A DNA stretch of 64,000 bases from Tricharina praecox. Its lineage: Eukaryota. The stretch lies in NCBI RefSeq assembly GCF_024521635.1, contig NW_026250441.1, positions 62,001 to 126,000 on the forward strand, given 5' to 3'. Shown here in pieces: positions 9,273 through 48,260 of this stretch. The notes beneath the pieces are model-generated. The model was not told the DNA's origin. It ran no database searches and saw only the letters and a program-made list of their open reading frames with translations. The position numbers were made by a program, and so were the translations under genes. The first letter of the stretch is position 1. Every line of letters starts with the position of its first letter.

Positions 9273-12214
9273 GGCTGCTGGTGTGGTGGTTGTTGAGGTA
9301 TGCGACTGCGAAGTGAGGACTGTTAGTGGGTGGCCGTGAGACTGTAAACCCGGAACACAGGGTATTGTACTTGCGTTTGCTGGTCTGGATGCGGGAGTTT
9401 AAGTTGCTGTTTGAGTCGCTTTTGGAGTCGCTTTTGGAGTCGATGTTGGAGTCGATGTAGGATGGATTGCCAGAGACGGAGAGGTGAGTATTTATCCTCC
9501 AGTCATGCTATGACCGTGAGAGTCTTTCGCTGTAGCATTCATACGATCTCTTCCAAGAATCGCTCTCCTAGAGCTCGCCGACGGCTTCCCCGCTCCGCAC
9601 ACCAGCAGAGGCACCACTCCCGGTGCACCACGCAGCACCGTGCTGCTATCTCTGGCATCAACCGGACATGAATACGAGGTCCCACCGGCCAGCCAGGCAG
9701 AACCAATCCTGATTGAGCTCCTCTCGTCCAACGACGCAATGACACTTATGCATCGTAAGCCAGCCATGGAGAGGTTTTTAGGATGGACACCTCGTATTTC
9801 GTATTTGGGGCTGAAGCTGAACATTCGAGCCCTGGACGAATCGTACATGATGCATTGAGCTTGATTCCGTTGGCACTCAGCACCGGTCCGCGGCCTGTGT
9901 GGGTATCGAGTTAAAGTCACGGGGGGAGGGTGCGTGGAATTGCGGGAGTGCGGTGGTTATTCTCAACGAGTCCAAGTGTTCCACCATTGTCAAAAAATTC
10001 TGATCCGGACGGATAGAGAAGATGTTGACCCCCGTGTAAACCGTAGGCAGCGAGGTAAAGCGGACAACTATGGCCGACCTACCTACAGCATGATAGGTAT
10101 ATCGGCTACCGGATACCTTCCGCAGGCCGTAGGAGATGTATCGGTATATACCTCCTCCACCCCAGGAGCGGTAGCCAGTGACTTCATCGGAGCACTTACC
10201 CCGCGCCGACCGCCTGTGTCTATTCTTTGCATTTAGCTATTCATATCTTCCGGTCTAGTCTTGCTCTGCAGACCACAACAGCCGCGGTGCAAGTGGCAAA
10301 CCAATGCCTGCGCATATGTCTATTCCGTGGCTGAAACGTGCAGACACCGATCATGGCACCCCTGCGGACGCGAGTGAGCCAATGGCATACATACTCCATC
10401 TACATTTCTGCAACCGGCGAACTGCGGCGATTCCCATATGGTGTAGACTCGGTACCAATTGCATTGCGGTGACGAGACGGAGTATTTCATTCGGTATTTA
10501 GCAGAGGGCTACAGCCGGGAGACAAAATCAGTACAGACGACGGGACTAGTTGCCTGGGTACCGTGGTACACGAGGACTTTTCGGACCTATAAAAAATAAT
10601 CAATTGCGGAGCGTAAGACACCAGGCCGGACGGAGTGGAGGCCGCAGGAATACGCTGCTCGATGAGTGGGCTTCTGTTTGTCGTTCCAGCATACATGCTC
10701 GCAATTATCATACAGAACATACCTACGTCATAAGTGCATCTGCCAAATCCCATCCATCATCGCTGAAGCCCTGGTATGTCCCGGGCCCGGTGCCCGTACC
10801 CCCATCTCCCCGCCTACGGCTGGGCCACGGGAACTGTATGTATGCAGCGCAGTACAAGAAAAGAAAATAAAAGAAAAGAAAACAAATTGTCGGCTGAGTC
10901 GGCTCACGTCTGACCCTTTCTTGCGCGCCGGGCAGCCCGCCAGCCCCTCATACGGGCCACCGTCGCTACTTATGTGCTAGTACATCCTACCCGTAGATTG
11001 AATATCCAGAGGAAGCTAATGAAAGTGCCGGTACGATGCAGCGAAGCGGTTTGCAATTCCCAAAAACGACGGGTCACGGGGGTGGGCAGGAAATCCCCAA
11101 GGATCAAATTTGGAGTGGTCAAGAAGGGAACGACTCGTGAGGCCTCCGCAGCCACGCAGAAATACGCGAGGCGCACACGTGTGTGTGGAAGGGGGTGGGA
11201 TTGGAATGTGTGCTGTATGATGTACGACGGGAATCGTATCCAAAGATCTGGGTCACGTGGGTAAGAAGCTCGTCCCCTCGCCCAGTCTCAGGGCTGACGG
11301 CGTACTAGCCCAATCTAATCTTATCTCATGGTAGATACCCAACGGCGGAGGAATGATACATGTTTCATTGGTGCGTGCGCCACAGTCGGGTAAGGCCGCA
11401 TGCGGAATGGAACTGAACCCTGGTTGAATGGGTCGCCGCGCCACATCAGCCCCGTGGAGAGCGCCACACCCGTAATCCTTCCCCGTCTGACTGTTCGGTG
11501 ACGATCGCGTTGGCCACTTGGTGACGAAAACGAGTAAAGCTCGGCACAGACAACGCGTCGACAAAGTAACTCGGAGAGAAGGAAACACCATGGCTGCCAT
11601 AACCTCGGACCAGGTGAGCCTCCTGTGATGCACATGTGTGGCGGGAATGTAGTGCGGATATGTGGTGCTGATTCGATGCACAATGCACGGTAAGAGAAAC
11701 CGGTCATAGAAGTGGTCAATATTAAATAGGTTTGCCCGGGAAACGCATCTCTGTACATATAATGAAAGCCCCCCACCGCTCATACAGAATGGTGTGATAC
11801 GTAAATATGTAACTCTCAGCCACTGCCCTTCCATCACACTTCACTCGCGCGCCACCTCCGCCTTACCATTACACCACTAAGTGCTTGCCTCTGGCACTGC
11901 CGGCAATCTTTTGCTTTGCCTATTGTCCCAGCTTCAGATCATTTTACTGCGGCTTAACATGTGTCTTTTTTCCCAATTGCAGTGGAGTTACCTCTCCAAC
12001 CTCCTTTTGCCACGGAAATTTAGCTGCCACCTGAGAAAACCCGTTTGCTAGCTGACCCGCTTCCCTGCGAAACCAAATTTGCAAACCTATTCTACGGACA
12101 CATATTTTGCATTAGGTAGCTTAGCCGATCCCCAGATCATCCTGGGAGTGAGGAAGCCAGTGCCGATAATCCAGGGACCAACGAGCGGGTATTAGTCTAG
12201 TCCCATCCCGTGTT

Positions 12215-15200
12215 TCAAACTGATACCGTCCCATGGCCATCACTACACCCGTCTTTCTCGGCGGGTATGACATCGGCTCCCTTCTCGGCAAGCAGCCGTA
12301 CCACTGCCTTGTGCCCGTTTTGCACGGCTAGATCCAGTGGCATCCGATCATCGTTATCGGCAGTTGACACTTGCGCTCCTTTCTCGATGAGCAGCCGGGC
12401 CACCGCTTCGTTCCCCGAACGCGCAGCCAGATGAAGTGGCGTCCACCCATTTTTGTGGGCGGCGTCGACGTTCGCTCCCCGTTCAACGAGCAGTCGGGCT
12501 ACTACATCTAGTACCTTCTCTAATGCCCGATACAGTGGCGTCCGCCCATACTTATCGGCAACAGAGACATCGGCTCCATTTTTAACAAGCAGCCAAGCCA
12601 TCGACGAGTCCCCCAGTTGCACAGCCAGATGCAGCGACGTCAACCCGCCTTCATCGCCGGCCGAGACATCAGCACCATTCTCGACGAGCAGCCGGGCCAA
12701 TGCCTCGTCTAGCACATCATGGCCACGTGCAGCGGTGTCCGCCCGCTCGTGTCGGCGGTTGAGACATAGGCTCCGGGCCATCGATACGTCCCTCTGTTGC
12801 ACGGCCAGATGCAGCGACGTAAACCCGTCTTTATAAGCGGTAGACAGATCGGTCCATTTCTTGACGAGCAGCCGAGACACAAAATCTAGGTTGCTCGCTA
12901 ACAGTGTTCTCCATAGTCCGGTCCGGACTGCAGTCTAGACAGGACGGCCTGCCAAGATCTAGTCTCATCCGTAACTTTTTGTGGATGGAATAAAAGTAGT
13001 CCGTCCCGTCCGCCAATTTTCAAGACGGGGTTGGACTGCAGTCGACTCCAGTCCGGTAGTGAAAACAAATGCCACTATTTTCAGCACTTACCCCACGAAC
13101 TTTGATAGTATTCCCCACTCTGGTGTGTTCAATTCCGTCCAGTACCAGCAAAACCGTGAGCGGCGACACCACCTTCGTCCCGCACCAGTACGTCCGCGCC
13201 ACAATCTTCGTCCAGTAGCAATAATCTGCGCCACAATCTGCGCCACAATGTTTGTTTAGTACCATGAACGCCGCGCCGTAATCTTGAGCCCATGCGCATA
13301 TGCTTCCCTCAGCCACTATAACCGCCGATAATATGCCGCGGGCTTTCTATCGTGATTTCTATCGCCTTGCACTAGTCTTGGCAGTCGATTGCAGTCCGTC
13401 CCGTCCGACCATACTGGTGGACTAGTCCGTCCGACAGACACCTCCTGACGGACTGGATGTATGTAGTCCAGTCCAGTCCGAGGCTCAGGGCGGGCGGATT
13501 GGACTATGGAGAACACTGCTCGCTAATGCTAGACAAAGTAGCATCTGCCCATCGTTATCGACGGCTGAGACGTCGGCTTTGTTCTCGCCAGAGAGCCGAG
13601 CCACCGCCTCGTGTCCGTTCTAGACGAGCAGCTGAGCCACCGCCTCGTGTCCTTTCTCCCATGCCCGCTGCGAGGACATCATCCCGTCGTTTGTAGCCGC
13701 CGAGCTTCTCCCATCTGTGATCCGGGTTGAGAGATCTACTCCCTTCTGAATGAGCAGCCGGGTAACCGCCTCGTGCCCCCTTTCTACTGCCCTATGCAGC
13801 GGCATTCTCCCATCTTTGGTAGCGAACGAGATCTTGGCTCCATATTCGATGACCAGCCGGACCAGTGCCTCGTCGCTCATCTCCGAGGCGCGATGCAACG
13901 GGGTCCAACCCTCGTGGTCAGTGGCGGAAACGAAGGCCCCACGTCTAGCAGCTTACGGAAAAGATCCACGTCTCGTAATCTGCACGCGTGGTGAAGTAAC
14001 TGGTTGATTCGTGGCATCTCCAATGGTTTGGATTTGAATACACTGGTAAACCTCCGCTTGAGCCCGAATATTCAAACCGAGGCAAGTACGTTGTTTCTTA
14101 CACGGTGTATTTCTATGGTCCTTTTCCAAAACATGCTTCTGGCGGGTCGCCACATAACTCTCCTGCCATGATATTCACGCCATCGTTGGTAGTTTGCCTC
14201 TGACATGAATGAATCCCAAAGAGGAGTCAACATTTCATCTTCGCAATGGCCGAAATGCCACAGCCAAAAGACCGCCGAGTATATCAAAAAGTGGCGACCG
14301 AGATACTGCCCTTCACTTGTAAGGCTAGTTCTGTCGTAATCAATCCAAGAGTCCGAACTGCAGAGGAGCGAGGGGCAGGCTCTCGCGATCTGGGTATGGG
14401 AGTCGATCTTGCGCAGCCGTGTCTCCACGTATTCGTCGACGGAAAGATACGCAAACCGGAAAACGTCAAGATCTTTGTCCAGGACTAGCAGATTCTGACA
14501 AGCCTTTAACAGGTCGTTCGCATTAACCGACAGATCGTGCGAAAAGCCACCCCGGCAGTCGACCTCCGCCATGATCGCATCGAGCAAGGTTTTGCATTAA
14601 ATCAGCTCGTGGGAAGACTGAATCCCCCGGGACGCATTTAGTGCAAACCGCGAAGCGCTGCCTTTCTGCGTGAGAATGCGCTGGGAGGTTTCGTCGTACG
14701 CAGCGGTGAGGATTTCCGGTAGCACCTTGAGACTGGGTCTTACGTCGTTTTGCGTGGCCATATCGCAGAGAAAGGCGATCTGAAGTGCGGCTAGTTGTAA
14801 CCTGAACCGTCAGTTTCTCCGCTTATAAGTGACTGGAGTAGTTACGGTAAACGTACATTCCCTTGGATCGCTGACGAAGGAGGTTGCATATATCGGCTTG
14901 GAGCCCAGGACACCATGGACTAGTCACTCCTCGTCAATGGCCATCTGAACATTGCTTTCTATAAACTCGTTGATGTCGCCGACATTGTCATCAGGTTGCA
15001 ACTCGATGCGGGGAAACATCGCAAGCTGCAGCAGAATATCAGTGTCCATTCGGGTGGTTGCAAAGATCTTGACGAAATTCTTCGATTTTTCGACGACATA
15101 CTTCAACGACTTGAGTAAATCTATCCGGACTTTGCTATCGACTTCGTCCAAGGCATCAATGCAAATTGCCGTCTTCAAATATATGTAGGTTAGTCAAACA

Positions 15201-17319
15201 AGAAGCTCCCGGCTTTCTGCAAGGCTTAGTCTTGCTTTTTTTTGCCCATTTTTCTCCCTCTCCTCGTTGACATGAACCACCGGCTTCAAGAGTGTGTCCT
15301 CTCCGGACCCAGTCCGGGCGAGTTGTTGAATGAGAGTAATGAGAATACTTTCCGGATTTCGGCGATTATCCTCGGCTCGATTGAGGTAGAAGTATGCTAG
15401 TCTCTCGGGGGTTGGACTGGAAACAAAGGAATCGATAACGCGTGATGCGATGTATGTCTCGCCCGCTCAAGCTAAACGACCGGTGAGTCAAGACATCCGG
15501 CAAAAGGGAATCAACACTTACGAATGCCCGTAAGAGCAGCAGCTTGGAAATACTGGATGATCTCCACTCGCAGTGCTCCCTCCTCTCAAAAAGCCATTCG
15601 CAAGTGCCTTCCAAGCGGGTTTCACTGGTTCGCGTATGGTGACTTGAGTAAGGGACAGTGGATATGCATTGCACCTCCGAGTCACTAGAATAGAGTGAAA
15701 AGGTGAGTACAGGCGTAACTACACTGTGGGGAATCGGCTCGCTTTCGTACCCGCAAGTGTTCGCTGCATGTTATCGATTTGAGGTCCAAGCCGTGATGAC
15801 TTCATGTCTTCGGAGTCCTCCAGCAGCGTCTGAAGTCTCTCGAACCTTATCCGCGTAGCTGAATCGCGTCAAAATTTGAATGGTTCGTGAGGCTGACCAG
15901 AACTGGGTTATACGTACATTGAGCTTCGGCAACACAAGCATCGCGTGCAACCGCTTCCTCCAAGTCCTTGACATCATTAATGTAGTTGGAGGTTTCCCCT
16001 GTCGTGAATACCGCCTCGAGGTGGTTGTCTAAGGAAGGATTAGCGGTGGCTCCTCCAACGGCTACTGTCCGCAAAGAATACTATGCCCCTTTCAATCTCA
16101 CTATGGACTTGGCCAGGAATTTCAAGATTGCCGTGTACAGCCGGAGTATTGACTTCTCTAGGTTTTGAGAAGCCTCCGTTGTTTTGTTTAGATAGAGATG
16201 CTCGTAGATCGCGCACCAATCGGTGATGCAGACACTCTTCTCAAGTCCCACCAGGATCGCGTCTACCGTTTCCTGCTTATCCAAGCAAAGCTGTTGGGTT
16301 TATCGTCAGCGGGTTTCTTTAATCGCAAGTGGTTGAAACCAAATTTCACCTGCAGCAGGAATCGGAAGCCCGCCCACGGCAGCGCAGCGTGTCCGGGGTC
16401 GTATTGGACGACAATGTCCCCGATGTCCTTGAATCTCTGAATCCACCGCCCGATCTTCATGGCAATATCTCTCAAGACAATATCATCGCCTTTGAACCGA
16501 ATCTTCCGATCCTTTCCTTTTCTTTCCTCCATAATCCCATTCGTCATGGTCCCCAAAGCGGCCGCAATCTGACGGGTGTCGGTGTCGATGCGAATACCCG
16601 AAAGCGCTCGGCACTCGTGCGCAGACAGCTCACCGCTGTTGAAAGCCCTACTCCACAACGATGGGGCATCGCCACCGCCAGCCGTCGATGTCGGTTCGTC
16701 TTCGTTTCCATTCTGCACGTGTGTCGCATCGACCACCGGAGCCGTGTCATTTGACATGGCCGTGTCCTGTGTCGCATTCGTCACCGGGGGCGTATCCTTC
16801 GACATCGCCGTACGCTTCGGCGTCGCCATGTCCTGCGCAATCGCTGCATTCGCTGTGATTACCGTGTCCGTCGTCGTCGTGTGCGTCACCATCCTCGTGT
16901 TTTGCGTAATCGCTGCATTCGCTACGGCCACCGGGTCTGCCGTAGCCGTGTCTGCCGTGTCTGTGTCCGCCATCGTATCCGTCACCGGAGCAGTGTCCTT
17001 CGAGGTGGCCGAGTCCTGCGCAATAGCTGCATTCGCCGCGGCCACCGTGTCTGCCGCCGCCGTTAAGGATGTTAGCCCGGGCTGACTTGACGGATCAGAG
17101 GGCTGCGTCGTCGGTTGCACCCCCCGATTGCGGCTCTGCCGAGGATCCTGTCGACGGGACAAGCTGTTGAGTCGAGGGCGAAGGTACTCTGGTCGGGGAA
17201 GCTGCTAACGTGAAGTGTAGTCCCACCGGTGAATGTGCGCTTACGGCTGGCGACTTCGATCGTCCGATTTTCAAAGCCGCGCGTAATCGATCTCGTTTCC
17301 TGGCCGTGCCGGGAGCCAT
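12215..17319 (-). pseudogene. degenerate NACHT-ankyrin NLR-like gene (NWD-type N-terminal domain, NACHT, ankyrin repeats)
   Basis: Fragments in several frames: FKDIGDIVVQYDPGHAALPWAGFRFLL (N-terminal domain), RLEGTCEWLF, ICIDALDE (Walker B), LLKACQNLLV..FRFAYLSVDEY, and many TPLHLAA ankyrin repeats. Walker A is destroyed (P*AGET near 15460). Multiple frameshifts and a MITE insertion. Confidence 0.85.
12902..13518. mobile_element. hAT-type non-autonomous element (MITE), 617 bp
   Basis: Perfect 18-bp TIR CAGTGTTCTCCATAGTCC / GGACTATGGAGAACACTG; perfect 8-bp TSD CTCGCTAA at 12894-12901 and 13519-13526; GTCC/GGAC subterminal motifs. Confidence 0.92.
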
Positions 17320-20071
17320 TTTCGTGAAACGATCACGATGCGTTTCGCCGGCGATGGATGACCGATGTAGCTGTGTAGTCGCTAATTGGTCAAGATTTTG
17401 AATGAAAGATCGTCGCCGTATGGAGCTGCAGAGGCTCAGTTCGCGGTTTGCGGGGTTGTGTGTCGACGCGTTTCCAGTCAGGCTTCCCCTCACTTTGATC
17501 TTGAGCACAATCGGGCGACTGTCATACATAGAACTAATAGGCGTTTGGGAATTCCTATTGTATTATGCCGCGCTAGTTACTGCTGCGCAACATCTACAGA
17601 CCTTGGGGCCAGCCGGCTGGCCGGTGCTGCGCACGTACCAAGAATTGCCAGAGAGTGAGCACTCGCGTGAAATATAAGCGGGGAACCCATGAATATGATA
17701 GGACGCTGGGAGGCCGAAGCGTGGCGCAACCCTGTAACTGTATCGCAATACTGTGTAGAGAAAACATTCACTGGTGGTGCTTCTTTACAGTTTCTCTTTC
17801 TTATTTCACTGCTCGGCGTTATCTACGGCTGCGGTATGTACTAGGGATCTAGAGTATCTGGGATGAAGACTTGCAAGTGGCAACTACCTAACTACTATGG
17901 AATCTGGATCGCGATAACCACGAACAGCAACGCAAGAAACGACCGAAGCCCGCATAACTTACCCTTATAGGTACATTGACTGCTCAGATAGCTTCAAACA
18001 TGGGGCCCGTAGTCGGTCCATCGCGATATAAAAAAATTCCCGTTGAGTCTCAGGAGTCCGCAGGTTTCTATACCCCTTCCCGGTGATGAATACGTTACAG
18101 ACCACTAGATACCCGGCCAGCAACAGGAGACAGGGAACCTTCGGACAAACATGCAAGATCATTTGGACGTGCGAGGCTTAGACCTCGGTCCACTACACTT
18201 CGAGTTCCGTGTATTCGATGATCACATGCGATGTTTCGGGTTCCTGCGTGGTCGCCGAAGGGGCAGCAGTCAACGAACGATGAGGCGGCCGAGCACTGAC
18301 TTCTGGCGCATTGTATCGATAAGTGATCGCTTAAAAAGAAAAGAAAACAATCCTATCGCAAGGTGTAACTGACCAAGCCGTTGTGGCAGAGCATCTCCAT
18401 CAAATCGCTGTGGTAAAAACTCCTCGTAACGTAAAGAATAACGGCAATCGCGAAAACTGCCGTTCCGACGCAAGTCAGTCTCCATAAATGCCGTTCCATT
18501 TGAGTCCGAAATTCCAGGTTTTAAGCCGCCATATAGAGCCCAGCGATGACGATTATGCATCATAGCCCTACGATGAACATAGTACGAGAATTCTCCTGAC
18601 GAAGTTGCAGACTGTGTAGTAGCCTCGCCTTCTGTTGGCATTGTTTGGAATCTGGTAGAGAGTTGCTGTATCTAGTCCGGCCAATGAGGGAGGTGTTGTA
18701 AATCACGTAAACCACGATTTTATGGACGGCTCTGTCGGATGTGGCGGATCGGCTCCGGCGGCGGCCGTGATACGGCAATGTGTTCCTGCTGATGAGGAAC
18801 CTGGTTATGCCCAGCAATGCCGACCGCCTCCATCATCAATCACGACTAGTAGCCCTTCTTCGCTGAGATGACGGATTGAATGCAACGGAATCTCCTCACC
18901 GAAATCAGCAAGAATGGGTGTAGCCGTCGGAGACAGGTGCGGAGTCACGTCATCCGTCATCCGTCTGTTGCATCGCCGAGTGAGGCTGGCGGCTGGCAAC
19001 GGTTCGGTTAGACCCTCTTCTTGAGGTCAAGGCGACCGAGCTCGTTGAAGTCCGTTGGCTTCCGCCACCAGCACAAAAAGATGAGCATTGTGCAAGCTAC
19101 CTGTATCCGAAGTTCAGAATATGAAATTCTAACAGAATAAACTCAAGTTAAGGGCGGTTTCTTCATCGGGGGTGCTGCCTCGATACTGAAGAGATTGAAC
19201 CAACAGCCACAAAGTCTGCAAAAAAGGGAAGATCTTCCCGATATGAATCGCATTGTCTTCGTCCACGATTTCGTGGGCATTGAATTGTAGAGGTTTCTCG
19301 AAGTCGTCAAAGTATCCTCGGCCGGTACGGACATCAATACAGCCCGAATGAAGATCCGGGAAGTTTCCGATAGCCGGGGGATGGTGTTCAAGTGTGCACT
19401 ACGGTGCAAACGCAGATCACGAACGTGGCAGTGCGGCTGAAGACGATGCTCCAATTTACGCGACCGGCGAGCTCCGTACATAGCGAAGGTCATGTCACCG
19501 AGGGAGGTTGCATGCATGCCATGAACCTGGACGCCGGCGGCGATATCCTGGTTGTACATATTACCTCGTGAGTGAGATATGACGGTATTGCGGGGTAGGC
19601 CTGATTCAGCCAAGTCAAGTAACCACCATCACCGACGCGAACGTTTTACCATAAACGCGCTGACACGTATGTCTCACAATTTAACCAACCCGCCCAAGGC
19701 TCTCAGTTCACCTTAATTACAAACGCCGTTTTCCATTTCTCGGTGACAATCCCAATTTTCAGATACATACGATTAGATTTCATAAGCGTTCATAGGCAAC
19801 CTAATGGAGACCATCCTAGTTGAGTAGGCACAAGGACACCATCTCCAGACCTGATCAGGTAACGATCGCCTCGGGGCCCGGGTGGCCTGCAGCTGAGTTC
19901 AGAAGCTTTGCGAGAGCGGCGCTCTAATAGGTATCGATACTCGCATAGGGGTTTCGCAATCGGAACGGCCGGGACTATCTGAGGCTGAGGGGGAAGGTCC
20001 GCGCAAGGATCGACTTGAAGGCCTTCAGAGAAGGTGACGTTGCCTGCGAGAAGTTTCAACTGAAGCCAATC

Positions 20072-21931: not shown

Positions 21932-24900
21932 ATGTCAAAACGCCAGAAATCCGACCACCATACGCGAGCGCCTCCGCCAGTGCCAAGTGTCAGGCTATCC
22001 GGTGCGACACCGTCCACGCACCCAACAGACTCTAGTCGCAGGTACCAGGGTACCACACACTTGGAGTTTAGGGGAGGGGAGTTTCATGGCGGGCAGAACT
22101 TCTATTCCAACGGGTGAGTCTCGGGACTACGTTTGGAGATCGCATATTCTACTTAGTTCGAGTAGAGTGGATTTAAGGATGGCTAACCGGAATTCGCTAG
22201 CAGTTCCGACAGTAAGCGACGTTGCTCGATCAAAAACACTTTACTACCCTCCTGGAACTAACTTTGAGCTTTAGCCCCCGAGTCGAAATGTTTGCGCTGT
22301 CTCTACACTTCCGACTATGAATCCCACAAGGACAGAAACCCTAAGCGAGTGGATGGAACGCTTGAATGGTTTCTCCGTCACGAAAAGTATCGGCACTGGC
22401 AAGAAAAAGATTCGAGTCTTCTATGGGTGACGGCAGATCCGGGATGCGGAAAAACCATGCTGGCCGCATTTCTAGTGGACGAGCTGAGTGTCCACTCGGA
22501 ACCTCGCGACACCGTCTGCTTTTTCTTCTTCAAAGATGACAATCAGGAACAGAAATCTGCGACATTGGCTCTTTCCGCCCTCCTCCACCAGCTCTTTTCG
22601 GCGAAGCCATTCCTTCTCCGGCATTCCTTGAAAGATTACAACGACAAGGGCGCGAAATTTACAGAACAATTCGGTACGCTGTGGCGCATCTTCCGGGCAG
22701 CAACCACCGACCCGGACTGCGGCAATGTCATTTGCATCATCGACGCTTTGGATGAATGCGAAGAATCGACTCGAAAGTCCCTCATCGATTCTTTAGTCAG
22801 CAGCTACACACCAGCGATCGGCACAGGGCGCAGCACGGGCGAAACGCTTCCAAAATTCATCCTCACCAGTCGCCCATACGGCTCCATCGAAAAACAATTC
22901 GGTACACAACTTATCAGATTGAAAGCGGAGGAGCAAACACCCGCCATCAGCGAAGACATTGAGCGTGTCATCGATTCCGAAGTTGAGTTGCTGGGGAATG
23001 TGTGGCACCTCACTGATGACGACCGGATAATTATCCGAGACAAGCTCATCCGGGGCGCCGATCATACATTCCTGTGGGTTTCCCTGATTGTCAAAATCCT
23101 CCACGGTAGTCAAGCAGCTTCGCGGAGGAAATTCCTTCAAACTCTCAACAGCCTACCGAGTAACCTCGAAAGCGTCTACGAAAAGATCCTTGAAGATATT
23201 TGTGACCGCGAAGAGGCCAAACGGATTCTCCAAATAGTCGTCGCGGCTACACGACCCCTCACACTCGACGAGATGGACATCGCACAAGCGATTCAGCGGG
23301 ATCACAAATCAATCGAGGACCTCCAGCCGTGCCGCCTGTACTCCTTCGAAAGCACGGTGAAGAACACATGCGGACTTTTCGTGAAGGTCATAGACTCGAA
23401 GATCTACCTTATCCACCAAACGGCGAAGGAGTTCCTGATCAAGGGCACAGCTACCGCCACATCTGCTACGGAAATTACCACGTGGAAGCAATCACTTTGT
23501 CCTATCGAATCAAACCTCACCCTCGCGAAGAGTTGCCTTTATTTTCTCTTGTTTAATGTCTTTGAAACCCACCCTCTGGCACTACGAGCGCAGGGATCGG
23601 ATATAGATGGCTACACCATAGGGCATGTGTTTTTAGATTATGCAGCTAAAAATTGGACGGCTCACGTCCAAGAGGCCAAGATATGGGAGGATGAGAAACT
23701 CTCCGCTATTGCGTTGAAGGTTTACACGAGTGGGTCGGGGCGGCTGCTGACATGGTTCCAAGTTTACATGGCGAGCAACTGTGAGTATTGGAACTTCGAT
23801 AACATGAGTGGGCTTGCAGTAGCATCATATATTGGTCAGGATGCGGTGGTGGAGCTGCTAATAGAACAGGGAGAAGACGTCAACAGTGGCCGTAGCCTAT
23901 ACAACAATGCTTTGAATGTGGCTGTTCGAAAGCGAAATAGGAATGTGATCATGTTGCTGCTCAACAGAGGAGCCATTGTCTTTCTATTCGGAAGTGAATA
24001 TTGGAACCTTTTAGAGGTTAACAGATGTCTTTCCCTTTCCATGACTGAAACCAGAGCTAATAGTTTGCTTATATCGTGCCATAGTCTGTAAGTAGAATTG
24101 CTAGTTGGCAAAAGCGTCTCTCTGATAAAAGACTGACATTCGTGGCCACTTTCCGACAGCGAGTATGAACACTTCCTCCTCCCTACAAGCGCTGGGAGGG
24201 ATCGCTGACATTCATCCCGTTTCTGTCACAGCGGGTGACCTGACCTATTTCACCCCTCCAGTCGAGGTGTACCGCTGACAGTGAGCGCTGTGCGCCTCAT
24301 AGACGGTATGATGCGTATCGTTATACCTTCCTTACTCTCGACTGCACTGACCTTCGGGCACGATGGGAGAAACAGGATGTACGTAAAGCTGATGGCAATT
24401 CGCTATTCTTCGACGACAGTGCTGACACTGACGAACGACTATGATAGTTTGTGAGTGGGCGAGATAGATGCTCATTACCCACGGCAAACATAACGGACAG
24501 CTGACCTCGGGGTTGTTTGTGATGGTAGCGGGTAGACACTCATATTACTCAGCCTAGATTGAGTAAGGAAACAAGACTAACATTGAGTTTCCCATCGAAA
24601 ATAGAAAGTGAGTGCGAGGAATGGGCCTGTTTTGGCTCCTAGAGACTATACGGCTAACGTTCGGTCCACTTTGCAATAAAGTGGGTAAATGAAATAATGA
24701 GGGTCCGTCTACTACATTAAGAGTGTATCACTGATTGTCGGTTCCTGGGGAACGAAGACCGTGAGTGAACCAAATCACTTGGGTGTGCCTCTCCACATGG
24801 CTGACTTTCGGATCGCTTTGCTTTGCAGGAAGTAAGTGAACCAAATCACTTGGGTGTGCCTTTACACATGGCTGACTTTCGGATCGCTTTGCTTTGCAGC

Positions 24901-27900
24901 GCGTAAGTGAACCACATCACTTGGGTGTGCCTTTCCACATGGCTGACTTTCGGATCGCTTTGCTTTGCAGTGGGTAAGTGAACCAAATCACTTGGGTGTG
25001 CCTTTCCACATGGCTGACTTTCGGATCGCTTTGCTTTGCAGGAAGTAAGTGAACCACATCACTTGGGTGTGCCTTTCCACATGGCTGACTTTCGGATCGC
25101 TTTGCTTTGCAGATTGTAAGTGAACCAAATCACTTGGGTGTGCCTTTCCACATGGCTGACTTTCGGATCGCTTTGCTTTGCAGGAAGTAAGTGAACCACA
25201 TCACTTGGGTGTGCCTTTACACATGGCTGACTTTCGGATCGCTTTGCTTTGCAGCGCGTAAGTGAACCACATCACTTGGGTGTGCCTTTCCACATGGCTG
25301 ACTTTCGGATCGCTTTGCTTTGCAGTGGGTAAGTGAACCACATCACTTGGCTGTGCCTTTCCACATGGCTGACTTTCGGATCGCTTTGCTTTGCAGCGCG
25401 TAAGTGAACCAAATCACTTGGGTGTGCCTTTCCACATGGCTGACTTTCGGATCGCTTTGCTTTGCAGGAAGTAAGTGAACCACATCACTTGGGTGTGCCT
25501 TTCCACATGGCTGACTTTCGGATCGCTTTGCTTTGCAGCGCGTAAGTGAACCACATCACTTGGGTGTGCCTTTCCACATGGCTGACTTTCGGATCGCTTT
25601 GCTTTGCAGATTGTAAGTGAACCAAATCACTTGGGTGTGCCTTTCCACATGGCTGACTTTCGGATCGCTTTGCTTTGCAGGAAGTAAGTGAACCACATCA
25701 CTTGGGTGTGCCTTTCCACATGGCTGACTTTCGGATCGCTTTGCTTTGCAGGAAGTAAGTGAACCACATCACTTGGGTGTGCCTTTCCACATGGCTGACT
25801 TTCGGATCGCTTTGCTTTGCAGGAAGTAAGTGAACCACATCACTTGGGTGTGCCTTTACACATGGCTGACTTTCGGATCGCTTTGCTTTGCAGCGCGTAA
25901 GTGAACCACATCACTTGGGTGTGCCTTTCCACATGGCTGACTTTCGGATCGCTTTGCTTTGCAGTGGGTAAGTGAACCAAATCACTTGGGTGTGCCTTTC
26001 CACATGGCTGACTTTCGGATCGCTTTGCTTTGCAGGAAGTAAGTGAACCACATCACTTGGGTGTGCCTTTCCACATGGCTGACTTTCGGATCGCTTTGCT
26101 TTGCAGATTGTAAGTGAACCAAATCACTTGGGTGTGCCTTTCCACATGGCTGACTTTCGGATCGCTTTGCTTTGCAGGAAGTAAGTGAACCACATCACTT
26201 GGGTGTGCCTTTACACATGGCTGACTTTCGGATCGCTTTGCTTTGCAGCGCGTAAGTGAACCACATCACTTGGGTGTGCCTTTCCACATGGCTGACTTTC
26301 GGATCGCTTTGCTTTGCAGTGGGTAAGTGAACCACATCACTTGGCTGTGCCTTTCCACATGGCTGACTTTCGGATCGCTTTGCTTTGCAGCGCGTAAGTG
26401 AACCAAATCACTTGGGTGTGCCTTTCCACATGGCTGACTTTCGGATCGCTTTGCTTTGCAGGAAGTAAGTGAACCACATCACTTGGGTGTGCCTTTCCAC
26501 ATGGCTGACTTTCGGATCGCTTTGCTTTGCAGCGCGTAAGTGAACCACATCACTTGGGTGTGCCTTTCCACATGGCTGACTTTCGGATCGCTTTGCTCTG
26601 CAGTCGGTACGTGAACCAAATCACTTGGGTGTGCCTTTCCACATGGCTGACTTTCGGATCGCTTTGCTTTGCAGATTGTAAGTGAACCAAATCACTTGGG
26701 TGTGCCTTTCCACATGGCTGACTTTCGGATCGCTTTGCTTTGCAGGAAGTAAGTGAACCACATCACTTGGGTGTGCCTTTCCACATGGCTGACTTTCGGA
26801 TCGCTTTGCTTTGCAGGAAGTAAGTGAACCACATCACTTGGGTGTGCCTTTCCACATGGCTGACTTTCGGATCGCTTTGCTTTGCAGGAAGTAAGTGAAC
26901 CACATCACTTGGGTGTGCCTTTCCACATGGCTGACTTTCGGATCGCTTTGCTCTGCAGTCGGTACGTGAACCAAATCACTTGGGTGTGCCTTTCCACATG
27001 GCTGACTTTCGGATCGCTTTGCTTTGCAGATTGTAAGTGAACCAAATCACTTGGGTGTGCCTTTCCACATGGCTGACTTTCGGATCGCTTTGCTTTGCAG
27101 GAAGTAAGTGAACCACATCACTTGGGTGTGCCTTTCCACATGGCTGACTTTCGGATCGCTTTGCTTTGCAGGAAGTAAGTGAACCACATCACTTGGGTGT
27201 GCCTTTCCACATGGCTGACTTTCGGATCGCTTTGCTTTGCAGGAAGTAAGTGAACCACATCACTTGGGTGTGCCTTTCCACATGGCTGACTTTCGGATCG
27301 CTTTGCTTTGCAGGAAGTAAGTGAACCACATCACTTGGGTGTGCCTTTCCACATGGCTGACTTTCGGATCGCTTTGCTTTGCAGGAAGTAAGTGAACCAC
27401 ATCACTTGGGTGTGCCTTTACACATGGCTGACTTTCGGATCGCTTTGCTCTGCAGTCGGTACGTGAACCAAATCACTTGGCTGTGCCTTTCCACATGGCT
27501 GACTTTCGGATCGCTTTGCTTTGCAGGAAGTAAGTGAACCACATCACTTGGGTGTGCCTTTACACATGGCTGACTTTCGGATCGCTTTGCTTTGCAGCGC
27601 GTAAGTGAACCACATCACTTGGGTGTGCCTTTCCACATGGCTGACTTTCGGATCGCTTTGCTTTGCAGATTGTAAGTGAACCAAATCACTTGGGTGTGCC
27701 TTTCCACATGGCTGACTTTCGGATCGCTTTGCTTTGCAGGAAGTAAGTGAACCACATCACTTGGGTGTGCCTTTACACATGGCTGACTTTCGGATCGCTT
27801 TGCTTTGCAGCGCGTAAGTGAACCACATCACTTGGGTGTGCCTTTCCACATGGCTGACTTTCGGATCGCTTTGCTTTGCAGGAAGTAAGTGAACCACATC

Positions 27901-28696
27901 ACTTGGGTGTGCCTTTCCACATGGCTGACTTTCGGATCGCTTTGCTCTGCAGTGGGTAAGTGAACCAAATCACTGGGCGTGCCTTTCCACATGGCTGACT
28001 TTTGGCCGGCCTTCCAATATACAGGAGGTAAGAAAACCTGATCACCCGAACCTCCCGTGACATTCATCTGACCATCGCCTCTCTTTGCGTCGCGGAAGGT
28101 AAGTGAACTGAAGCACCATGCATGTGTGACGCCGGTAGGAAAGTACTGAAATATGGGCTCCGGTTTCGCGCAGATTGTAAGCTCACTTCCTTTGAATGCT
28201 GTTCACTGTGCCCGGCGGTTGGCTCACATTGGCTTGACTTTCTTCGCAGGCGGTAATTGAACCTCCTCGCCGTGATGATCATTGACTGATACTATCTGCC
28301 TTTCCCCCTGGCCTTTTACGTCTTAGAAAGTACGTGACTTGTTCTATGATCCTCTTTGCTTTGTCGGTGCTAATAAAAGGTATCTGATGTCTCAGTTTGT
28401 ATGTATCATTCTTTCGGTTCATTCCGTCTGCGCCACAATTGATCGGTCTGTTGCTAACACACGGTAGCTGGTAAGTAATATGTTCCCATCCGCGCGTCGT
28501 ACTGTGGTGCTAACGTACGGCTGATTGATTTCCGCAGGAAGTAAGTCTTTTCGCTCAGGGCCCTTTTCTTTCTCGGAGCTGTTACCGACTGTAGGCTCTT
28601 CTTGGCCTCTAGGAGGTAAGTGGGGTCTTTTTCTGGTTGCTAGTCGTTTATTTGTCATCGTTGACCTTTTACCAGTTTTGCCTTGATGATGTTTGA
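21932..28696 (+). CDS. fungal NLR-like NACHT-ankyrin protein with a C-terminal tail encoded by about 63 three-nucleotide micro-exons
   Basis: Exons 21932-22113, 22201-22211 and 22275-24016. The third carries Walker A ADPGCGKT, Walker B CIIDALDEC, GADHTFLWV, LIHQTAKEFL, LDYAAKNW and about 2 ankyrin repeats. Then 3-nt exons between canonical introns from 24085 to 28615, and a terminal exon 28676-28696 (FCLDDV*). Confidence 0.88.
24761..28024 (+). repeat. 71-bp tandem array = 68-nt spliceosomal intron + 3-nt micro-exon; 45 full units plus one partial
   Basis: Unit GTAAGTGAACCAMATCACTTGGGTGTGCCTTTMCACATGGCTGACTTTCGGATCGCTTTGCTTTGCAG + NNN, with donor GTAAGT, branch GCTGAC, a pyrimidine tract and acceptor CAG. 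Micro-exons fall at 24829 + 71n (n=0..44). Confidence 0.95.
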
Positions 28697-31373: not shown

Positions 31374-33401
31374 CTACCCAAAAACCCAACTCGCAAACTC
31401 CCACGCCCAGCCCCTCCTCCTCCTAACCCTAGTCCTATCAAACGCCTCGCGATGAATACTATAGCTCATCTCCGCGGCACCCACCATCGGCGTCCTCACG
31501 ACCAGCAGCTTCGTAACCGCATAGATGAGCACAAAGACAAACACCGCGAGATACGCCGCCAAAAAATCCGCCTGCTTGAACGGCCTGAAAATGAACACAT
31601 CAAAGCCATTAAACAGGATTAGCAGCGCGCACCCCACAGCGCCGATATACGCGGCGGCGGGCTGGCCAGGGGAGGCGTATGGATAATCGCCGCTCGCGCG
31701 ATCGTACGGCGCGGTCCCAGTCTGCAATCCGTGATAGAACCGGATAAACGCTAGACACTGGCACAGCCAGACGATGAGGCAGGCGACAGTTTCGATCTGG
31801 GAGAAGACGCCGAGGAGCTCCTGCGCGTTGCCACCGCCGCACTGGAGGTAGGCGAGGGGCGCGAAGATGCAGCTCGCGAAGATGGCGGCGAGCGGGACGC
31901 CATTTTTGGTTGTATGGCGGAACACGGAGAGCACCGGGTGCGTGTCGTGGTCGAGCTTGACGGCCATGCCGTAGAGCGTCCGGCTCGCGACGAAGAGGGA
32001 CGTGTTCGCTGTGCTCATATTCGCGAAGATGAGGGCTGCGCTCACGAAGCCGGGGAGGAAGGTGATCCCCGCGTTCTTGATTGCGATTACGAAGGGCGAG
32101 AGGTCGCCGGTCGCGTTGCGTGGGTCGAAGAGGTTGGAGAGACCGCCGTCCGTGTACGGCACCGCGAGGGAGACGGAGAAGATCGCGGCGAGGTACAGGC
32201 TGAAGGTCAGCCAGAAGATGCGTTTGGTGGCGCGGGGGAGGTCGTCGCGCGGGTATTTTGCCTGGAGACAAGGTGTCAGTTGCTTTCGTCCACGGTGAAG
32301 AGAGCGTAATGGCTTGGGTACATACCTCGCTGGCGGTGACTGCGACAATCTCGATACCGATGTATCCGAAGGCGGCCAGAGTCATACCCTTCCAGATAGA
32401 CAGGAACCGGCCAAGGTCACCATCGAGGTTTTCTTTACCGCCAAAGTTCGGCGAAAAGCGGTACTTAGCCTTCCAATCTGATAATCATTAGCGCCTCCCG
32501 TTGACATGTACCAGGAGTCGGAACTCACAATCGACGCCATGAACCTTCCCCTTCGGCCCAGCGCCGCGATTGATAAACAACATCAAGATGATCAACCCAA
32601 CCAGTAGCACCACCTTCAAAAACCCGATGACATACTCGACCTCACCGAACACACGGATGCCAAAAACATTAATAATAATAACAACCGCCAGAACTCCAGT
32701 AATAATCCAGCCCTGGCTCACATCTGGATTAAACCCGGTCGCTAGAATAGCGGTACTCGTGACCAGCGTCGTCACTCCCATCGAATAGCAGAACCAGTAC
32801 GCAATCCCGACAGTCCATCCGAGCGCGCCGTCCACGAACCGTGTGGGAAAATTCATCAGCGCGCCAGACTCGGGAATGAGCGAGACCATCTCGCCGAGCG
32901 ACGAGACGACGCAGTGCAGGATAAACCCGGTGAACAGGTATGACAGCAGCGCGCCCGCGGACCCGCACAGCCGCAGGATCTGTCCGCTGCCGATCAGAAT
33001 GCCCATGCCGATCGTGCCGGAGAGCGATATCATCTGCACCGGAATATTCAGTATCCAATCGCCGGGCACACGGACACGGAGCGAACCCGCCTAGCACAGA
33101 GTACAATACATACCAGAATATGTCTCCTAACAAGCAGCGGCCGCAAATCGTAATGCGTCCCGAGGCCCTTCCGTGCGCCGGGCGGCACGCGCGGGCGCGG
33201 GCGCGGGCGCGGCTCCATCTCGACGTCGTCGCTCTTGCCTTCGCCCTCGCTGTAGGCCGAGCCGCGCCGGTCCGCGTGCGGCGACAGCTCCGGGACGAGC
33301 GCGGACGTCCAGGGCGGGTGCGTGGGGATGTGCGGGTTCATGGGAGTGGGAGGGTGAGTGTGGGTGTGAGTGTTAGGGTTGCTCATGGGTTCATGGCTCA
33401 T
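31374..33401 (-). CDS. amino acid permease (APC superfamily, YAT type)
   Basis: MISLSGTIGMGILIGSG, SLGEMVS, FPTRFVDGALG, FGEVEY, AAFGYIGIEIVAVTASE, SPFVIAIKNAGI and LFVASRTLYGMA; many TM helices; several introns. Confidence 0.9.
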
Positions 33402-44924: not shown

Positions 44925-47900
44925 ATGAAGCTCCCTCACCTCCAGCCGCTGCTCGCTGCAGCCGGACTATTCGTCACCCTCTCCTCCGCCCTCGGCCAGA
45001 AGTCGATAATATCAGCCAACAAACAAGCTGGAGTGCTCACGCTCGTCGAGAACAGTCGCCCAGTCGCCCGCATCCATGTCTCCAGCACCGGTGGGTTATT
45101 CCCGTGCCCGTCTCCTGAGGGAACCCGCGCATCTAAAACCTCACAGACTATCCTGCCGTTATCCGAGCGGCCCACGACCTCGCGGCTGACTTCGGCCGCG
45201 TGACGGGCCACAACATGACATTAACACTCACCAACTCCACCGGAAAAGCCGCCGCTGCCGCCGCCGGCACTTCCGCGATCATCGTCGGGACCATTGGCGA
45301 GTCCGCACTCATCGACTCGCTCGTGGCGAACAAGAAGCTGAATATCTCGGGGATCGTCGGGAAATGGGAGAGCTTTCGGACTACGCTGGTAGACAACCCA
45401 ATTCCGGGAGTCTCGCGCGCGCTAGTGATTGCCGGTAGTGACAAGCGCGGTACCATCTTCGGCGTCTACGAAGTGTCGGAGCAGATCGGAGTTTCGCCGT
45501 GAGTCCCTAGATTTGCGGTCGGATGCTGACCGATGCTTACCAGATCGTGCAGATGGTACTACTGGGCCGACGTGCCGCCGCAGCAACACAAGGCCCTGTA
45601 CGCATTGAAAACGACATTGCAGCGTGGCGAGCCGTCGGTCAAATACCGCGGCATCTTCCTGAACGACGAGCAGCCGGCGTTGACCGGGTGGGTTAACGAC
45701 AACTTTCCGCGCGGCGAGTACGGCCCCGGCTACAACCATGAGTTTTACAGCAGGGTGTTCGAGCTGCTGCTACGGCTGCGCGCGAATCTGCTCTGGCCCA
45801 CCATGTGGGACTCGATGTTTGCCGTCGACGACGCGTTAAACCAGAAGACAGCGGATATGTACGGGATCGTCATGAGTACGTCGCACACCGAGCCGCTGCA
45901 GATGTCGACTAAGGAGTGGAATACGCTCGGCAACGGCACTTGGGACTACACCAGCAATTCCGGGGAAATCTATAAGTACTGGCAGAAAGGCGTCGAGCGC
46001 GCCAAGGATTATGAGAACATATGGACCATTGGAATGCGCGGGAATGGAGACAATAATCTCGGGGAAGGTGTGGTGACGGAGCTACTGAGTAAGGTTGTCA
46101 AGGACCAACGGGAGATATTGGCGAATGTACTGGGAGTAGACGATGTGGCTACCGTGCCGCAAGTCTGGTGTCTCTACAAAGACGTGAGCCTCCTCCACCA
46201 CCATCTCGTAGAAAATTCCGGCATTGATGGGTGCGATCAGATTCAAGCATACTACGAGGCGGGCATGAGGGTCCCAGACAATGTGACCCTTCTTTGGACA
46301 GATGACAACTGGGGTAACGTGAGGAGACTGCCGTCGGCCAACGAAACTCATAACCAGGCGGGGATCTACTACCATTTCGATTGTCAGTTCCTTCCATGTC
46401 CGCCACCGCCTTTCTGCATCTAACAAACAGCTCCAGATGTCGGAGACCCCCGGAACTACAAGTGGATCAACACGGTTTCATTGACGAAGACGGCCCGTGA
46501 GTATCCATGAACAAACTTCCCGTTCCAACTGTAAAATCCTTCTAATATACTTTCCGCTTTGTAGATGAACTACACTTGACGTATGAAAGGGGTGCGCGCG
46601 AAATCTGGGTGGTGAGATCGCTTTTTTACCGTGCCCCCCTTGTCCATAGAGCTAAAGCAAGCGGTTGATGTAGGTAAATGTCGGCGATCTCAAGCCACTT
46701 GAAGTTCCCATCGACTACTTTCTCAATCTCGCCTACGACTTCGACCGCTGGGGTGGAGTCGAGGAGGTGGATGCGTACACGGCACTATGGGCGGCACGCG
46801 AGTTCGGCACCACGCACGCGGCCGAGATCGCCTCGATAATGTCGCTCTACGGCACCTACGCTGCACGGCGCAAGTACGAGCTGGTAGATTCTACGACGTA
46901 CAGCCCCATCCATTACCACGAAGCCGAGCTGGTGCTGTCGCAATGGAGAAACCTGTCTGCGCGGGCAAAAGCGGTGCACTCAGCACTCCCGGCCGCATAC
47001 CGCCCCACCTTCTTCGAACTGGTACTTCATCCCACTAAGGCCGCCTACACGGTCTACGATATCCACGTCACCACCGGCCGCAACAACCTATACGCGTCCC
47101 AGCGGCGCACCAGCGCCAATGCGCTCGCCCAGCACGTGATGAAGCAGTTCGACGAAGACGCCGTGCTGACGCGCGAATACAACGGCTTGTTGGGCGGAAA
47201 GTGGAACCACATGATGGACCAGCCGCACCTGGGCTACAACTACTGGCAGCAGCCAATGCGCAACACGCTGGCGCCGCTTGCGTGGGTTCAGGCTGGCGTG
47301 GCGTCGGTGGCCGGACACATGGGCGTTGCGATCGAGGGCTCGAACGGAACCGTCCCCGGCGACGACCGCTATAACACCGTCGCCTACGGAAACAATACAC
47401 TGGTTCTACCAGCGCTGGATCCGTTCGCCGCCACACCTTACCGGACAATCGAGATCTTCTCGCGCGGTACCGAGCCCTTCTTTTTCAACGTGACGCCACA
47501 CAACTCTTGGGTGCATGTGCAGCCGAAAACGGGGTTTGTCGACCCCCAGGACCCGGCCACGGATACCACGGTGCGCGTATCGGTGGATTGGGACGCGGCT
47601 CCGGAAGGCTACAACATCGGCTTCCTCGACATCACGTCTTCCGCCTCATACGGCGACTTCGGCGCGCCGTCCGTAAACCTACCGATCAACAAGACCGCCG
47701 TGCCGACGGGCTTCACGGGGTTCGTCGAGAGCGACAAGCACGTCTCCATCGAGGCGTCCCATGCATCGCGAAATACCTCCAACGGCGAGGTGCACTACAG
47801 CACACTCCCCAATCTCGGCCGCACCGGTGATGCGGTGACCATATTCCCCGTGACCGCCGACACGCAGGACACAGCCTCCGGGCCCCGGCTAGACTATGAT

Positions 47901-48260
47901 CTGCATCTCTTCACCGTGCCCAGCTACGGCGCAAACATAACCGTATATCTCGGCGGCGCGCTCAACAACCAACCGGGCCGGCCGCTGAAATACGCTATCG
48001 CCCTCGACGACGAGACGCCACAGGAGGTGCAGTACATCCCGAACCTGAAGACACCTCTCGCGATGCCGGATGGGTGGCTGGAGATGGTGGCCGATGGAAA
48101 TGTCTGGAAGCATACCACGAGGCACAATATGACCTCGCCGGGGAAGAAGACGCTCAAGCTGTGGGCGCTGGAGCCGAGTGTGGTATTCCAGAAGGTGGTG
48201 ATGGATTTGGGAGGAGTGAGGCCCAGCTACTTGGGGCCGCCGGAGAGTGTGAGATTGTGA
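44925..48260 (+). CDS. secreted GH115 alpha-glucuronidase
   Basis: Signal peptide; IAGSDKRGTIFGVYEVSEQIGVSPWYYWADV, PSVKYRGIFLNDEQPAL, FELLLRLRANLLWP, GMRGNGD, DDNWGNVRRLP, GIYYHFD, GKWNHMMDQPHLGY and SYLGPPES; about 6 introns. Confidence 0.93.

Follow-up and report, generated by a model that had tools for sequence, protein, structure and literature searches.

Can a run of near-identical 71-bp repeats near the 3' end of a fungal receptor gene really be a series of introns with one codon between each and the next, and if it is, how does such a series change and what might it offer its host? The run in question, called the array below, lies at 24761..28024 on the forward strand of a 64,000-nucleotide (nt) stretch of Tricharina praecox DNA (assembly GCF_024521635.1, contig NW_026250441.1, positions 62,001 to 126,000); this whole stretch is referred to as the window, and all coordinates are those of the window unless a locus is named. 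The array units are real introns and their triplets are real exons: ten codons upstream of the array, array codons 1 to 9 and the last array junction are found joined in RNA-derived contigs. The region is very probably the 3' part of a NACHT-ankyrin NOD-like receptor (NLR) gene of the "nank" type, in which the reading frame, after about two ankyrin repeats, runs through 63 one-codon exons, each followed by a short intron.

The one-codon-exon design as such is already known from the truffle nank family, and it is old. In Tuber melanosporum, members of this family are described as carrying tens or dozens of 3-bp mini-exons (Iotti et al. 2012, Fungal Biol 116:261, as cited in PMC9815663, PMC4986451, PMC3689799, PMC13449251 and PMC10197012). 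Reviews published as late as 2026 regard exons of codon size as a peculiarity of truffles, and a 2026 paper among those citing this work presents them as a lineage-specific strategy. The Pyronema genome paper cites Iotti for HET-domain counts alone, and the abstract of a 2024 Trichoderma paper that has Iotti among its references states that functional microexons have not been described in filamentous fungi. Within the literature searched, supplements excluded, no description was found of such exons outside Tuber, nor of a tandem array of introns with codons. What appears to go beyond that literature is the occurrence in Pyronemataceae, the presence of the design in 16 of 58 testable relatives from metagenomes, the conserved intron cassette, the codon as the most variable site in 9 of 11 arrays, and growth by exact multi-unit duplications. 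The design is spread through Pezizales and evolves by a concerted turnover of arrays, with the codon as the hypervariable site, much like that of the high-internal-conservation (HIC) repeats of other fungal NLRs.

Splicing of the codon exons

Four public runs (X1 to X4), each available as assembled contigs, were compared with positions 22100-24902. X1 is soil DNA; X2 and X3 are labeled "RNA?" and X4 "DNA?", none being recorded as RNA, and X2, X3 and X4 were taken as RNA-derived because their contigs carry spliced joints. Contigs of all three span 22275-24016 with 0 differences from the window, and both of their ends are spliced loose ends. The loose end before 22275 joins the upstream exon ending at 22113 and an 8-nt exon at 22204-22211 in each of the three runs. 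On the other side, the letters that follow 24016 (after GAG) in X2 and X3 are TCTCGACGGACGGATTTTCGGAAATGG, which read TCT CGA CGG ACG GAT TTT CGG AAA TGG, the triplets predicted at 24085-24682. The joints in this head of the chain are of the GT..AG type (24014>24083, 24162>24232, 24450>24529 and 24607>24682), and the joint 24014>24083 places the first junction in phase 0, so that the triplets are codons.

The array itself is joined as well. Behind 24761, after ACC, X2 reads (G)AA CGC TGG GAA ATT GAA CGC TGG CG, which is array codons 1 to 9 in genomic order. A further X2 loose end, at 24899, reads TGG|GAG and then continues into the next intron unspliced; since TGG and GAG are joined there, the last array intron has been removed too. 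The original prediction had supposed from the letters alone that the units are spliced, and these contigs bear it out.

A gene model was built by chaining AG-NNN-GT sites, with relatives used to place its 3' end. It has 67 exons and 66 GT-AG introns, and its single open frame encodes 713 amino acids; 63 of the exons are 3 nt long. Its parts are as follows.

21932..22113, forward strand: exon 1, from the start codon to the donor, encoding an N-terminal part of about 61 residues without a Pfam domain; its 3' end is given by the RNA loose end before 22275, and the ATG is predicted from the open frame.
22204..22211, forward strand: exon 2, the 8-nt micro-exon TTCCGACA; RNA loose ends in X2, X3 and X4 join the end of exon 1, these 8 nt and 22275, and the flanks are GT/AG.
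22275..24016, forward strand: exon 3, the main exon, encoding NPHP3_N/NACHT, a winged helix and about two ankyrin repeats; recognized by Pfam and covered by X2, X3 and X4 contigs, with spliced loose ends on both sides.
24017..24760, forward strand: chain head, 10 introns of 68-78 nt whose sequences are unrelated, with 10 three-nt exons at 24085, 24160, 24232, 24303, 24376, 24448, 24529, 24605, 24682 and 24758, reading SRRTDFRKWT; supported by RNA and by a head motif kept in relatives.
24761..28024, forward strand: array, 46 introns with a 71-bp period, all of 68 nt except the last, which has 69 nt, and 45 codon exons at 24829+71i, reading ERWEIERWRERIEEERWEIERWRERSIEEESIEEEEESERIEREW; supported by repeat and unit scans and by X2 RNA.
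28025..28675, forward strand: chain end, 8 three-nt exons at 28025, 28174, 28250, 28327, 28396, 28468, 28538 and 28613, reading E IAKFLEE, with AG-NNN-GT throughout; seen in RNA for TGG|GAG and otherwise predicted.
28676..28696, forward strand: putative terminal exon, encoding FCLDDV and followed by a stop; the FC(L/V/I)(D/E/G)D peptide is present in relatives.

After ...GSEYWNLLE the predicted protein thus continues with the head, the array string, the chain end and FCLDDV. The frame is kept across all 63 codon exons, with no stop among the 45 array codons. The introns of the chain end are diverged and 60-74 nt long, apart from one of 146 nt (28028-28173). Placement of the terminal exon draws on four metagenome relatives (L005, L007, L043 and L046), in which FC(L/V/I)(D/E/G)D follows the last codon exon across an intron of 57-61 nt. 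The 8-nt exon 22204-22211 sits between introns of 90 and 63 nt.

The host gene

Pfam searches of the upstream frame (22268-24091) return PF24883 NPHP3_N at 3.1e-39 and the winged helix PF22939. PF05729 NACHT scores 7.6e-06 with 26.3 bits against a cutoff of 26.7, and Ank_2, Ank and Ank_5 fall below cutoff over residues 511-583. This is the one NACHT gene in the 64-kb window. The main frame matches 1883 proteins at E <= 0.001 among 8000 scored candidates, and the closest named matches belong to Pezizales: a Tricharina praecox protein listed at 79% identity, proteins of Wilcoxina, Sphaerosporella and Trichophaea at 61-62%, and many from Tuber and Choiromyces at 40-44%. The Tuber and Choiromyces matches named "NACHT-ANK domain protein transcript variant" lie at 40-44% identity with E of about 1e-125 to 1e-141 overall; P0061, P0073, P0075, P0076, P0081, P0089 and others with that name match at 40-42% over 98-100% of the query, with E of 1e-123 to 1e-132. 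The features of nank genes that could be looked for are thus present: a NACHT-type NTPase with ankyrin repeats, homology to the Tuber NACHT-ANK proteins, and tens of 3-nt exons joined in mRNA.

The Tricharina praecox protein (P0002), alone among the named proteins, is blockwise identical to the window and differs only where the public model cuts pieces out. That model treats several coding pieces as introns and ends by translating the first tail intron (...LLEVNRCLSL..., …EVNRCLSLSMTETRANSLLISCHSL). It also starts elsewhere and lacks the 8-nt exon 22204-22211. The Sphaerosporella model and one metagenome model end likewise (…VNRYL…). Because gene callers stop in the first tail intron, the tails of the nank-type family are probably missing from protein databases, which matters for annotation.

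A uniform intron with a variable codon

Tandem Repeats Finder reports the array at 24764-28002 with a period of 71, 45.6 copies, 94% matches, 0% indels and a score of 5722. A scan with the first 11 bases of the unit, which include the donor motif, finds 46 unit starts from 24761 to 27956, at intervals of exactly 71 bp in 45 of 45 cases. Units 1 to 45 each consist of a 68-nt intron (GTAAGT...GGCTGAC...TTGCAG, with GGCTGAC 24 nt before the intron end) followed by 3 nt; unit 46 has a diverged 3' end and a 69-nt intron, and is followed by GAG. The 45 triplets are GAA (21), CGC (10), ATT (6), TGG (5) and TCG (3). Pairwise identity among the array introns averages 98.2% with a minimum of 92.6%, and the 45 units hold 10 intron haplotypes. 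The introns that flank the array in the chain (60-78 nt, plus the one of 146 nt) show identities of 0.49-0.65 to the array consensus, where their own shuffles average 0.52-0.60, with the exception of the last unit at 0.83. The original prediction had described 45 near-identical 71-bp units that differ at the triplet, had given these same codon counts, and had called the flanking introns completely diverged; its description of the array holds on each of these points, the last unit aside.

Variation falls on the codon. Across the array 7 of 68 intron positions vary and 3 of 3 triplet positions do, and nucleotide diversity is 0.68-0.71 for the triplet and 0.045 for the mean intron site. The predicted concentration of variation in the triplet therefore stands, with the qualification that the variants within the introns are linked to the neighboring codon. 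Transitions account for just three of the seven variable intron sites (positions 3, 31 and 63). The array is also a 3.2-kb near-identical repeat without the C-to-T decay that repeat-induced point mutation would leave.

Relatives in metagenomes

An alignment of 28 family members was used to scan metagenome contigs; 261 stretches matched, 230 of them encode a relative, and 80 loci were kept. Loci that continue for 800 nt or more downstream of the NACHT match, 58 in number, were treated as testable, and a chain was defined as at least 8 codon exons starting just after the match. Chains were found in 16 of the 58 loci (17 before the removal of L080, a false pattern in ordinary ankyrin repeats). 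Twelve of the 16 resemble the clade of the window gene (50-69% identity), and the other four (L043, L045, L046 and L048) are closest to Tuber and Choiromyces proteins at 54-61%. The longest chains have 103 codon exons (L007) and 72 (L001); the former, at 11812-20009 of its contig, is an uninterrupted series of 3-nt exons and the longest found, and L017 has the same unit type with another codon order. The "VVVV" chains of L080 and L053, together with chains in L021, L006, L069 and L072, reflect AG-NNN-GT patterns that arise by chance in repeats, ordinary ankyrin repeats or others, and were dropped from the stop-codon counts given below.

These chains share recognizable parts. They include the head motif (S/T)RR(K/T)DFR, the ..FLE motif and the terminal FCxxD exon, each of which is found at several loci. 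A single stop is found among the 622 chain triplets of the window and 15 loci, where 35.6 would be expected from base composition; of the control triplets taken from within the same introns, 49 of 1866 are stops. Arg (111 of 622 residues), Glu (95) and Trp (34, or 5.5%) are prominent. Individual loci use small codon alphabets of their own: E/R/W/I/S in the window, R/E in L001, P/L/R/T in L002 and S/D/W in L014. Seven loci carry arrays that Tandem Repeats Finder resolves.

L001: 64-bp unit, 50 copies, 78% matches.
L002: 70-bp unit, 47 copies, 76% matches.
L005: 78-bp unit, 33 copies, 85% matches.
L007: 83-bp unit, 86 copies, 81% matches, with higher-order periods of 166 and 249.
L013: 71-bp unit, 13.5 copies, 88% matches.
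L014: 72-bp unit, 20 copies, 93% matches.
L017: 83-bp unit, 28 copies, 87% matches.

The array of the window, at 94%, is more uniform than any of these seven. In the four Tuber-like loci, L043, L045, L046 and L048, Tandem Repeats Finder found no tandem array; their chains have 11-42 codon exons, and in L043 and L046 the introns are diverged, with a diversity of 0.40.

The cassette that carries the codon is conserved at its ends. Array units of relatives share the intron ends of the window (GTAAGTGAACC... and ...GGCTGACGTTCGGCTCGCTTTGCAATGCAG) around a locus-specific middle, and over these ends (16 + 32 nt) the window has 88-94% identity to loci in which the 4-fold degenerate sites of the NACHT exon are 43-71% identical. 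Intron ends that are better conserved than the silent sites of the neighboring coding exon point to specific sequence requirements. Over whole introns, identity is 0.83-0.92 within a locus and 0.56-0.78 between loci for 6 of 8 loci sampled; within L002 (0.65) and L043 (0.62) the introns are not more alike than between loci, and L007 and L017, whose introns are 0.90 identical, share one array type. In 11 of 11 arrays the diversity of the triplet is 1.8-15.6 times that of the mean intron site; the triplet takes the top rank among sites in 9 of them, and has its three positions in the top three ranks in 7.

This distribution also bears on the origin of the design. The original prediction had seen the gain of micro-exons caught in the act, but as an account of their origin this is not supported: the cassette and the design are present in relatives with 43-71% identity at 4-fold sites, and Tuber examples have, according to the citing papers, been described since 2012.

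How the array changes

Two segments of the array are present in exact duplicate, one of 759 bp (24845 and 25839, 14 units apart) and one of 417 bp (26536 and 26891, 5 units apart). This means that whole blocks of cassettes have recently been copied, as the original prediction of recent tandem amplification had proposed. It had further proposed that the codon itself diversifies, from the observation that the triplet types differ from each other at 2-3 positions. The observation is accurate, and at an intron divergence of 1.8% only about 0.05 differences per triplet would be expected; the proposed diversification has to be given up, because single-nucleotide variants in the introns are linked to codon type. 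TCG is preceded by C63 and followed by GTACGT with A13 in 3 of 3 cases, A13 follows ATT in 6 of 6, C13 follows GAA in 20 of 21, and A33 precedes CGC in 6 of 10. The five codon types are therefore five pre-existing cassette types that have been copied and reordered, not recent point mutations, and the linkage in the window array gives no sign of codons mutating in place.

Change by a single cassette may be seen between two metagenome samples. L001 and L003 differ, at L001 position 13034, by exactly one cassette (AGA and its intron), a difference for which an error of metagenome assembly is conceivable. Otherwise their aligned introns mismatch at 2 of 4451 bases and their NACHT sequences at 7 of 1845, and their shared codons are identical at 71 of 71 positions; the expected number of codon differences being 0.1, the pair is uninformative on purifying selection on codons.

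Taken together, these patterns suggest recombination as the mechanism of array change. Unequal crossing-over or gene conversion between near-identical introns would copy, delete and reorder whole codon cassettes. The intron ends would stay constant since splicing around a 3-nt exon depends on them, which would make the codon the variable site, and the conservation of the intron plausibly reflects this splicing requirement. The introns would be removed by intron definition, their signals being near consensus, with GTAAGT as donor, GGCTGAC as branch site and TTGCAG as acceptor. The mRNA would then encode a 69-residue tail with a conserved head (SRRTDFRKW), a hypervariable middle rich in Glu, Arg, Trp, Ile and Ser, and a conserved end (FLE-x-FCLDD), and such a tail may be, by analogy with other receptors of this class, the variable sensing or regulatory part of the protein.

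RNA structure was considered as a cause of intron conservation and rejected: folding of one and two window units and of stretches of L005 and L014 gave z = 0.33, 0.51, 0.18 and -0.03 against dinucleotide shuffles. A CCGAA/TTCGG pairing seen in the consensus of relatives is not kept in the window or in L007 and L014.

Alternative explanations

The most substantial challenge comes from a second codon string. After ACC, X3 and X4 read GAA CGC CGC ATT GAA GAA GAA TGG GA (E R R I E E E W E). This order departs from that of the window DNA, although both runs are identical to the window over the main exon (1742 of 1742 bases). The diversity of tails could then be mainly post-transcriptional, any of 46 equivalent donors pairing with any downstream acceptor, and the short string would be an exon-skipping isoform of the window array; it is indeed a subsequence of the window codon order that at least 3 skips would produce, and alternative splicing of mini-exons is reported for Tuber by the citing papers listed above (PMC9815663, PMC4986451, PMC3689799, PMC13449251 and PMC10197012). 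We regard this as a genuine possibility, though not the one we would choose. Past the point of divergence each run shows a single unbranched continuation, which fits one dominant form per sample better than random skipping, and the intron that X3 retains after ...GAA GAA GAA TGG has 4 differences from unit 2 over 52 nt, where the array introns of the window have 0-3 and the last unit 23, a hint at a different allele. The comparison of L001 with L003, for its part, indicates that cassette number varies between natural DNA samples. For the X3/X4 string itself, these two features, one unbranched form in each run and a retained intron unlike those of the window array, tilt the balance slightly toward a much shorter array allele over a product of skipping. 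Allele or skipping, either is variation of the kind that the architecture predicts.

It is improbable, in our judgment, that the array is a neutral runaway minisatellite in a decaying gene tail, with most transcripts stopping at an upstream retained intron and the codons of no consequence. The intron at 24685-24757 lends this some color, since it has weak splice signals (a GTAAAT donor and a GAAG acceptor), and its retention gives W-VNEIMRVRLLH-stop, an in-frame stop 11 codons after TGG. Contigs that keep it approach the depth of the main exon in three runs (1139.9, 669.9 and 14.7 against 1429.4, 898.6 and 20 in X2, X3 and X4), bearing in mind that contig depth cannot rank the parts of a gene; the array, moreover, uses just five codon types. 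Decay would not, however, account for the near-absence of stops (0 in the 45 array codons and 1 in 622 for the family as a whole, where about 16-36 would be expected), for a frame maintained over 63 codon exons, or for fully joined head codons in RNA. In distant relatives, moreover, the variable part is followed by the conserved peptides ..FLE and FCxxD, which is sensible only if translation runs through it. That the length and order of the array are artefacts of an assembler expanding a short repeat is a suspicion that any 3.2 kb of near-identical 71-bp repeats must arouse, being hard to assemble, and here it is very hard to credit: X2 RNA repeats the assembled order of codons 1 to 9, the units are not all identical and form a non-trivial higher-order pattern with 10 intron haplotypes, and arrays of 20-86 units occur in relatives. 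In X1, an independent run of soil DNA, the contigs that consist of array intron words alone have depths of 226-383 against 6.3-7.2 for the flanks (31-55 times), which is a hint only, depth not being copy number. Equally remote is a mobile, introner-like element that has inserted repeatedly. Many near-identical introns do lie in one region, and related introns occur in several loci, but the copies are strictly head-to-tail with a fixed 71-bp period, and they have no excess of RNA structure. This reading was dropped on the distribution of the cassette: over 1.03 Mb (the window and 80 loci) its 10-mer occurs 344 times in NLR tails and 12 times elsewhere, 10 of those 12 being one orthologous site and 2 lying at the end of a short NACHT contig. 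The original prediction had spoken of a direct mechanism of mass intron gain; introns have been multiplied locally, and by the same counts the process is confined to the gene tail.

The reading that we prefer, a long translated tail whose codons vary by turnover of cassettes, has several points weighing against it. The RNA covers the head, array codons 1 to 9 and the last array junction; codons 10 to 44, the chain end and the terminal exon are predictions, and the figure of 45 units is that of the assembly. All runs were available as assembled contigs, from which the shares of isoforms are not measurable; many of these contigs are partly spliced, and one keeps intron 24685-24757 while the array downstream is spliced. 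A large share of transcripts may never encode the array, or may be unproductive or detained, and intron 24685-24757 may be a detained or regulatory intron upstream of it. The X3/X4 string departs from the genomic order, as described above, and a sensing role would be an analogy with the C-termini of other NLRs.

Comparison with known systems

The window gene is like Tuber nank in encoding a homologous NACHT-ANK protein, in having a run of 3-nt exons after the ankyrin part that is joined in mRNA, and in its variable C-terminus. It differs in its host, a Pyronemataceae-type fungus, and in having 45 of its 63 codon exons in a tandem array whose introns are 98% identical.

The HIC repeat domains of fungal NLRs (WD40, ANK and TPR; PMC9815663, PMC4986451 and PMC13449251) offer a second comparison, and the parallel that had been drawn with them is apt, the host gene being an NLR. 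In both, near-identical tandem units lie at the C-terminus, a few hypervariable positions stand out in each homogenized unit, and growth and reshuffling proceed by multi-unit duplication. Here, however, the homogenized part is the intron and the variable part a whole codon, and each unit contributes one residue, without a repeat fold, as against about 33-42 per WD40, ANK or TPR repeat. The window array thus has the high unit identity that marks HIC repeats (98.2% over 45 units) and is not a structural protein repeat.

Other systems resemble it in part. The introner-like elements of fungi and the introners of algae are near-identical short spliceosomal introns that are dispersed in unrelated genes and are reported to fold stably. 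The array likewise places many near-identical short introns in one genome and offers a route to new introns; unlike introners, the cassette is strictly tandem within one gene tail and lacks excess folding energy. The micro-exon genes of Schistosoma use very short symmetric exons (6-36 nt) in genes for secreted parasite proteins, with variation by exon choice. They share with the window gene a protein encoded largely by strings of very short exons, but their introns are unrelated and not tandem copies, and their products are not NLRs.

Implications

We put forward, tentatively and as something rather less likely than not, the idea that in Pezizales the intron serves as a dedicated "codon carrier" of a receptor module: a fixed cassette, maintained by selection, that presents one free codon per unit. 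Unequal recombination would shuffle the cassettes in the germ line, and splicing among equivalent sites might recombine them once more in every cell. If true, NLR tails would have an open-ended repertoire at single-residue resolution, and fungi would have a third route to receptor diversity, beside HIC repeats and the expansion of paralogues, that reaches far wider than a single truffle lineage.

There are other implications. For fungal immunity, the design occurs outside truffles, reaches up to 103 one-codon exons, and evolves like the HIC repeats, to which the diversification of NLRs is attributed. Intron definition meets an extreme natural test in dozens of 3-nt exons that follow one another and are correctly joined. 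For intron evolution, the array is a clean case of rising intron number through the tandem duplication of a unit made of an intron and a codon.

Surroundings and minor features

Among the genes neighboring the array no transposon domains were seen. The neighbors are of ordinary kinds: a GH47 gene (1421-2779), an amino-acid permease gene split by an intron (31377-33090, reverse strand) and a GH115 gene (45530-48257). Within the chain end, the 146-nt intron 28028-28173 resembles two fused cassettes: internally it reads ...GCGGAAG|GTAAGTGAAC..., with a good donor directly after AAG and without a 3-nt exon between. Either a codon exon has been lost here, its acceptor AG having become GG, or the site is a recursive splice point of zero length.

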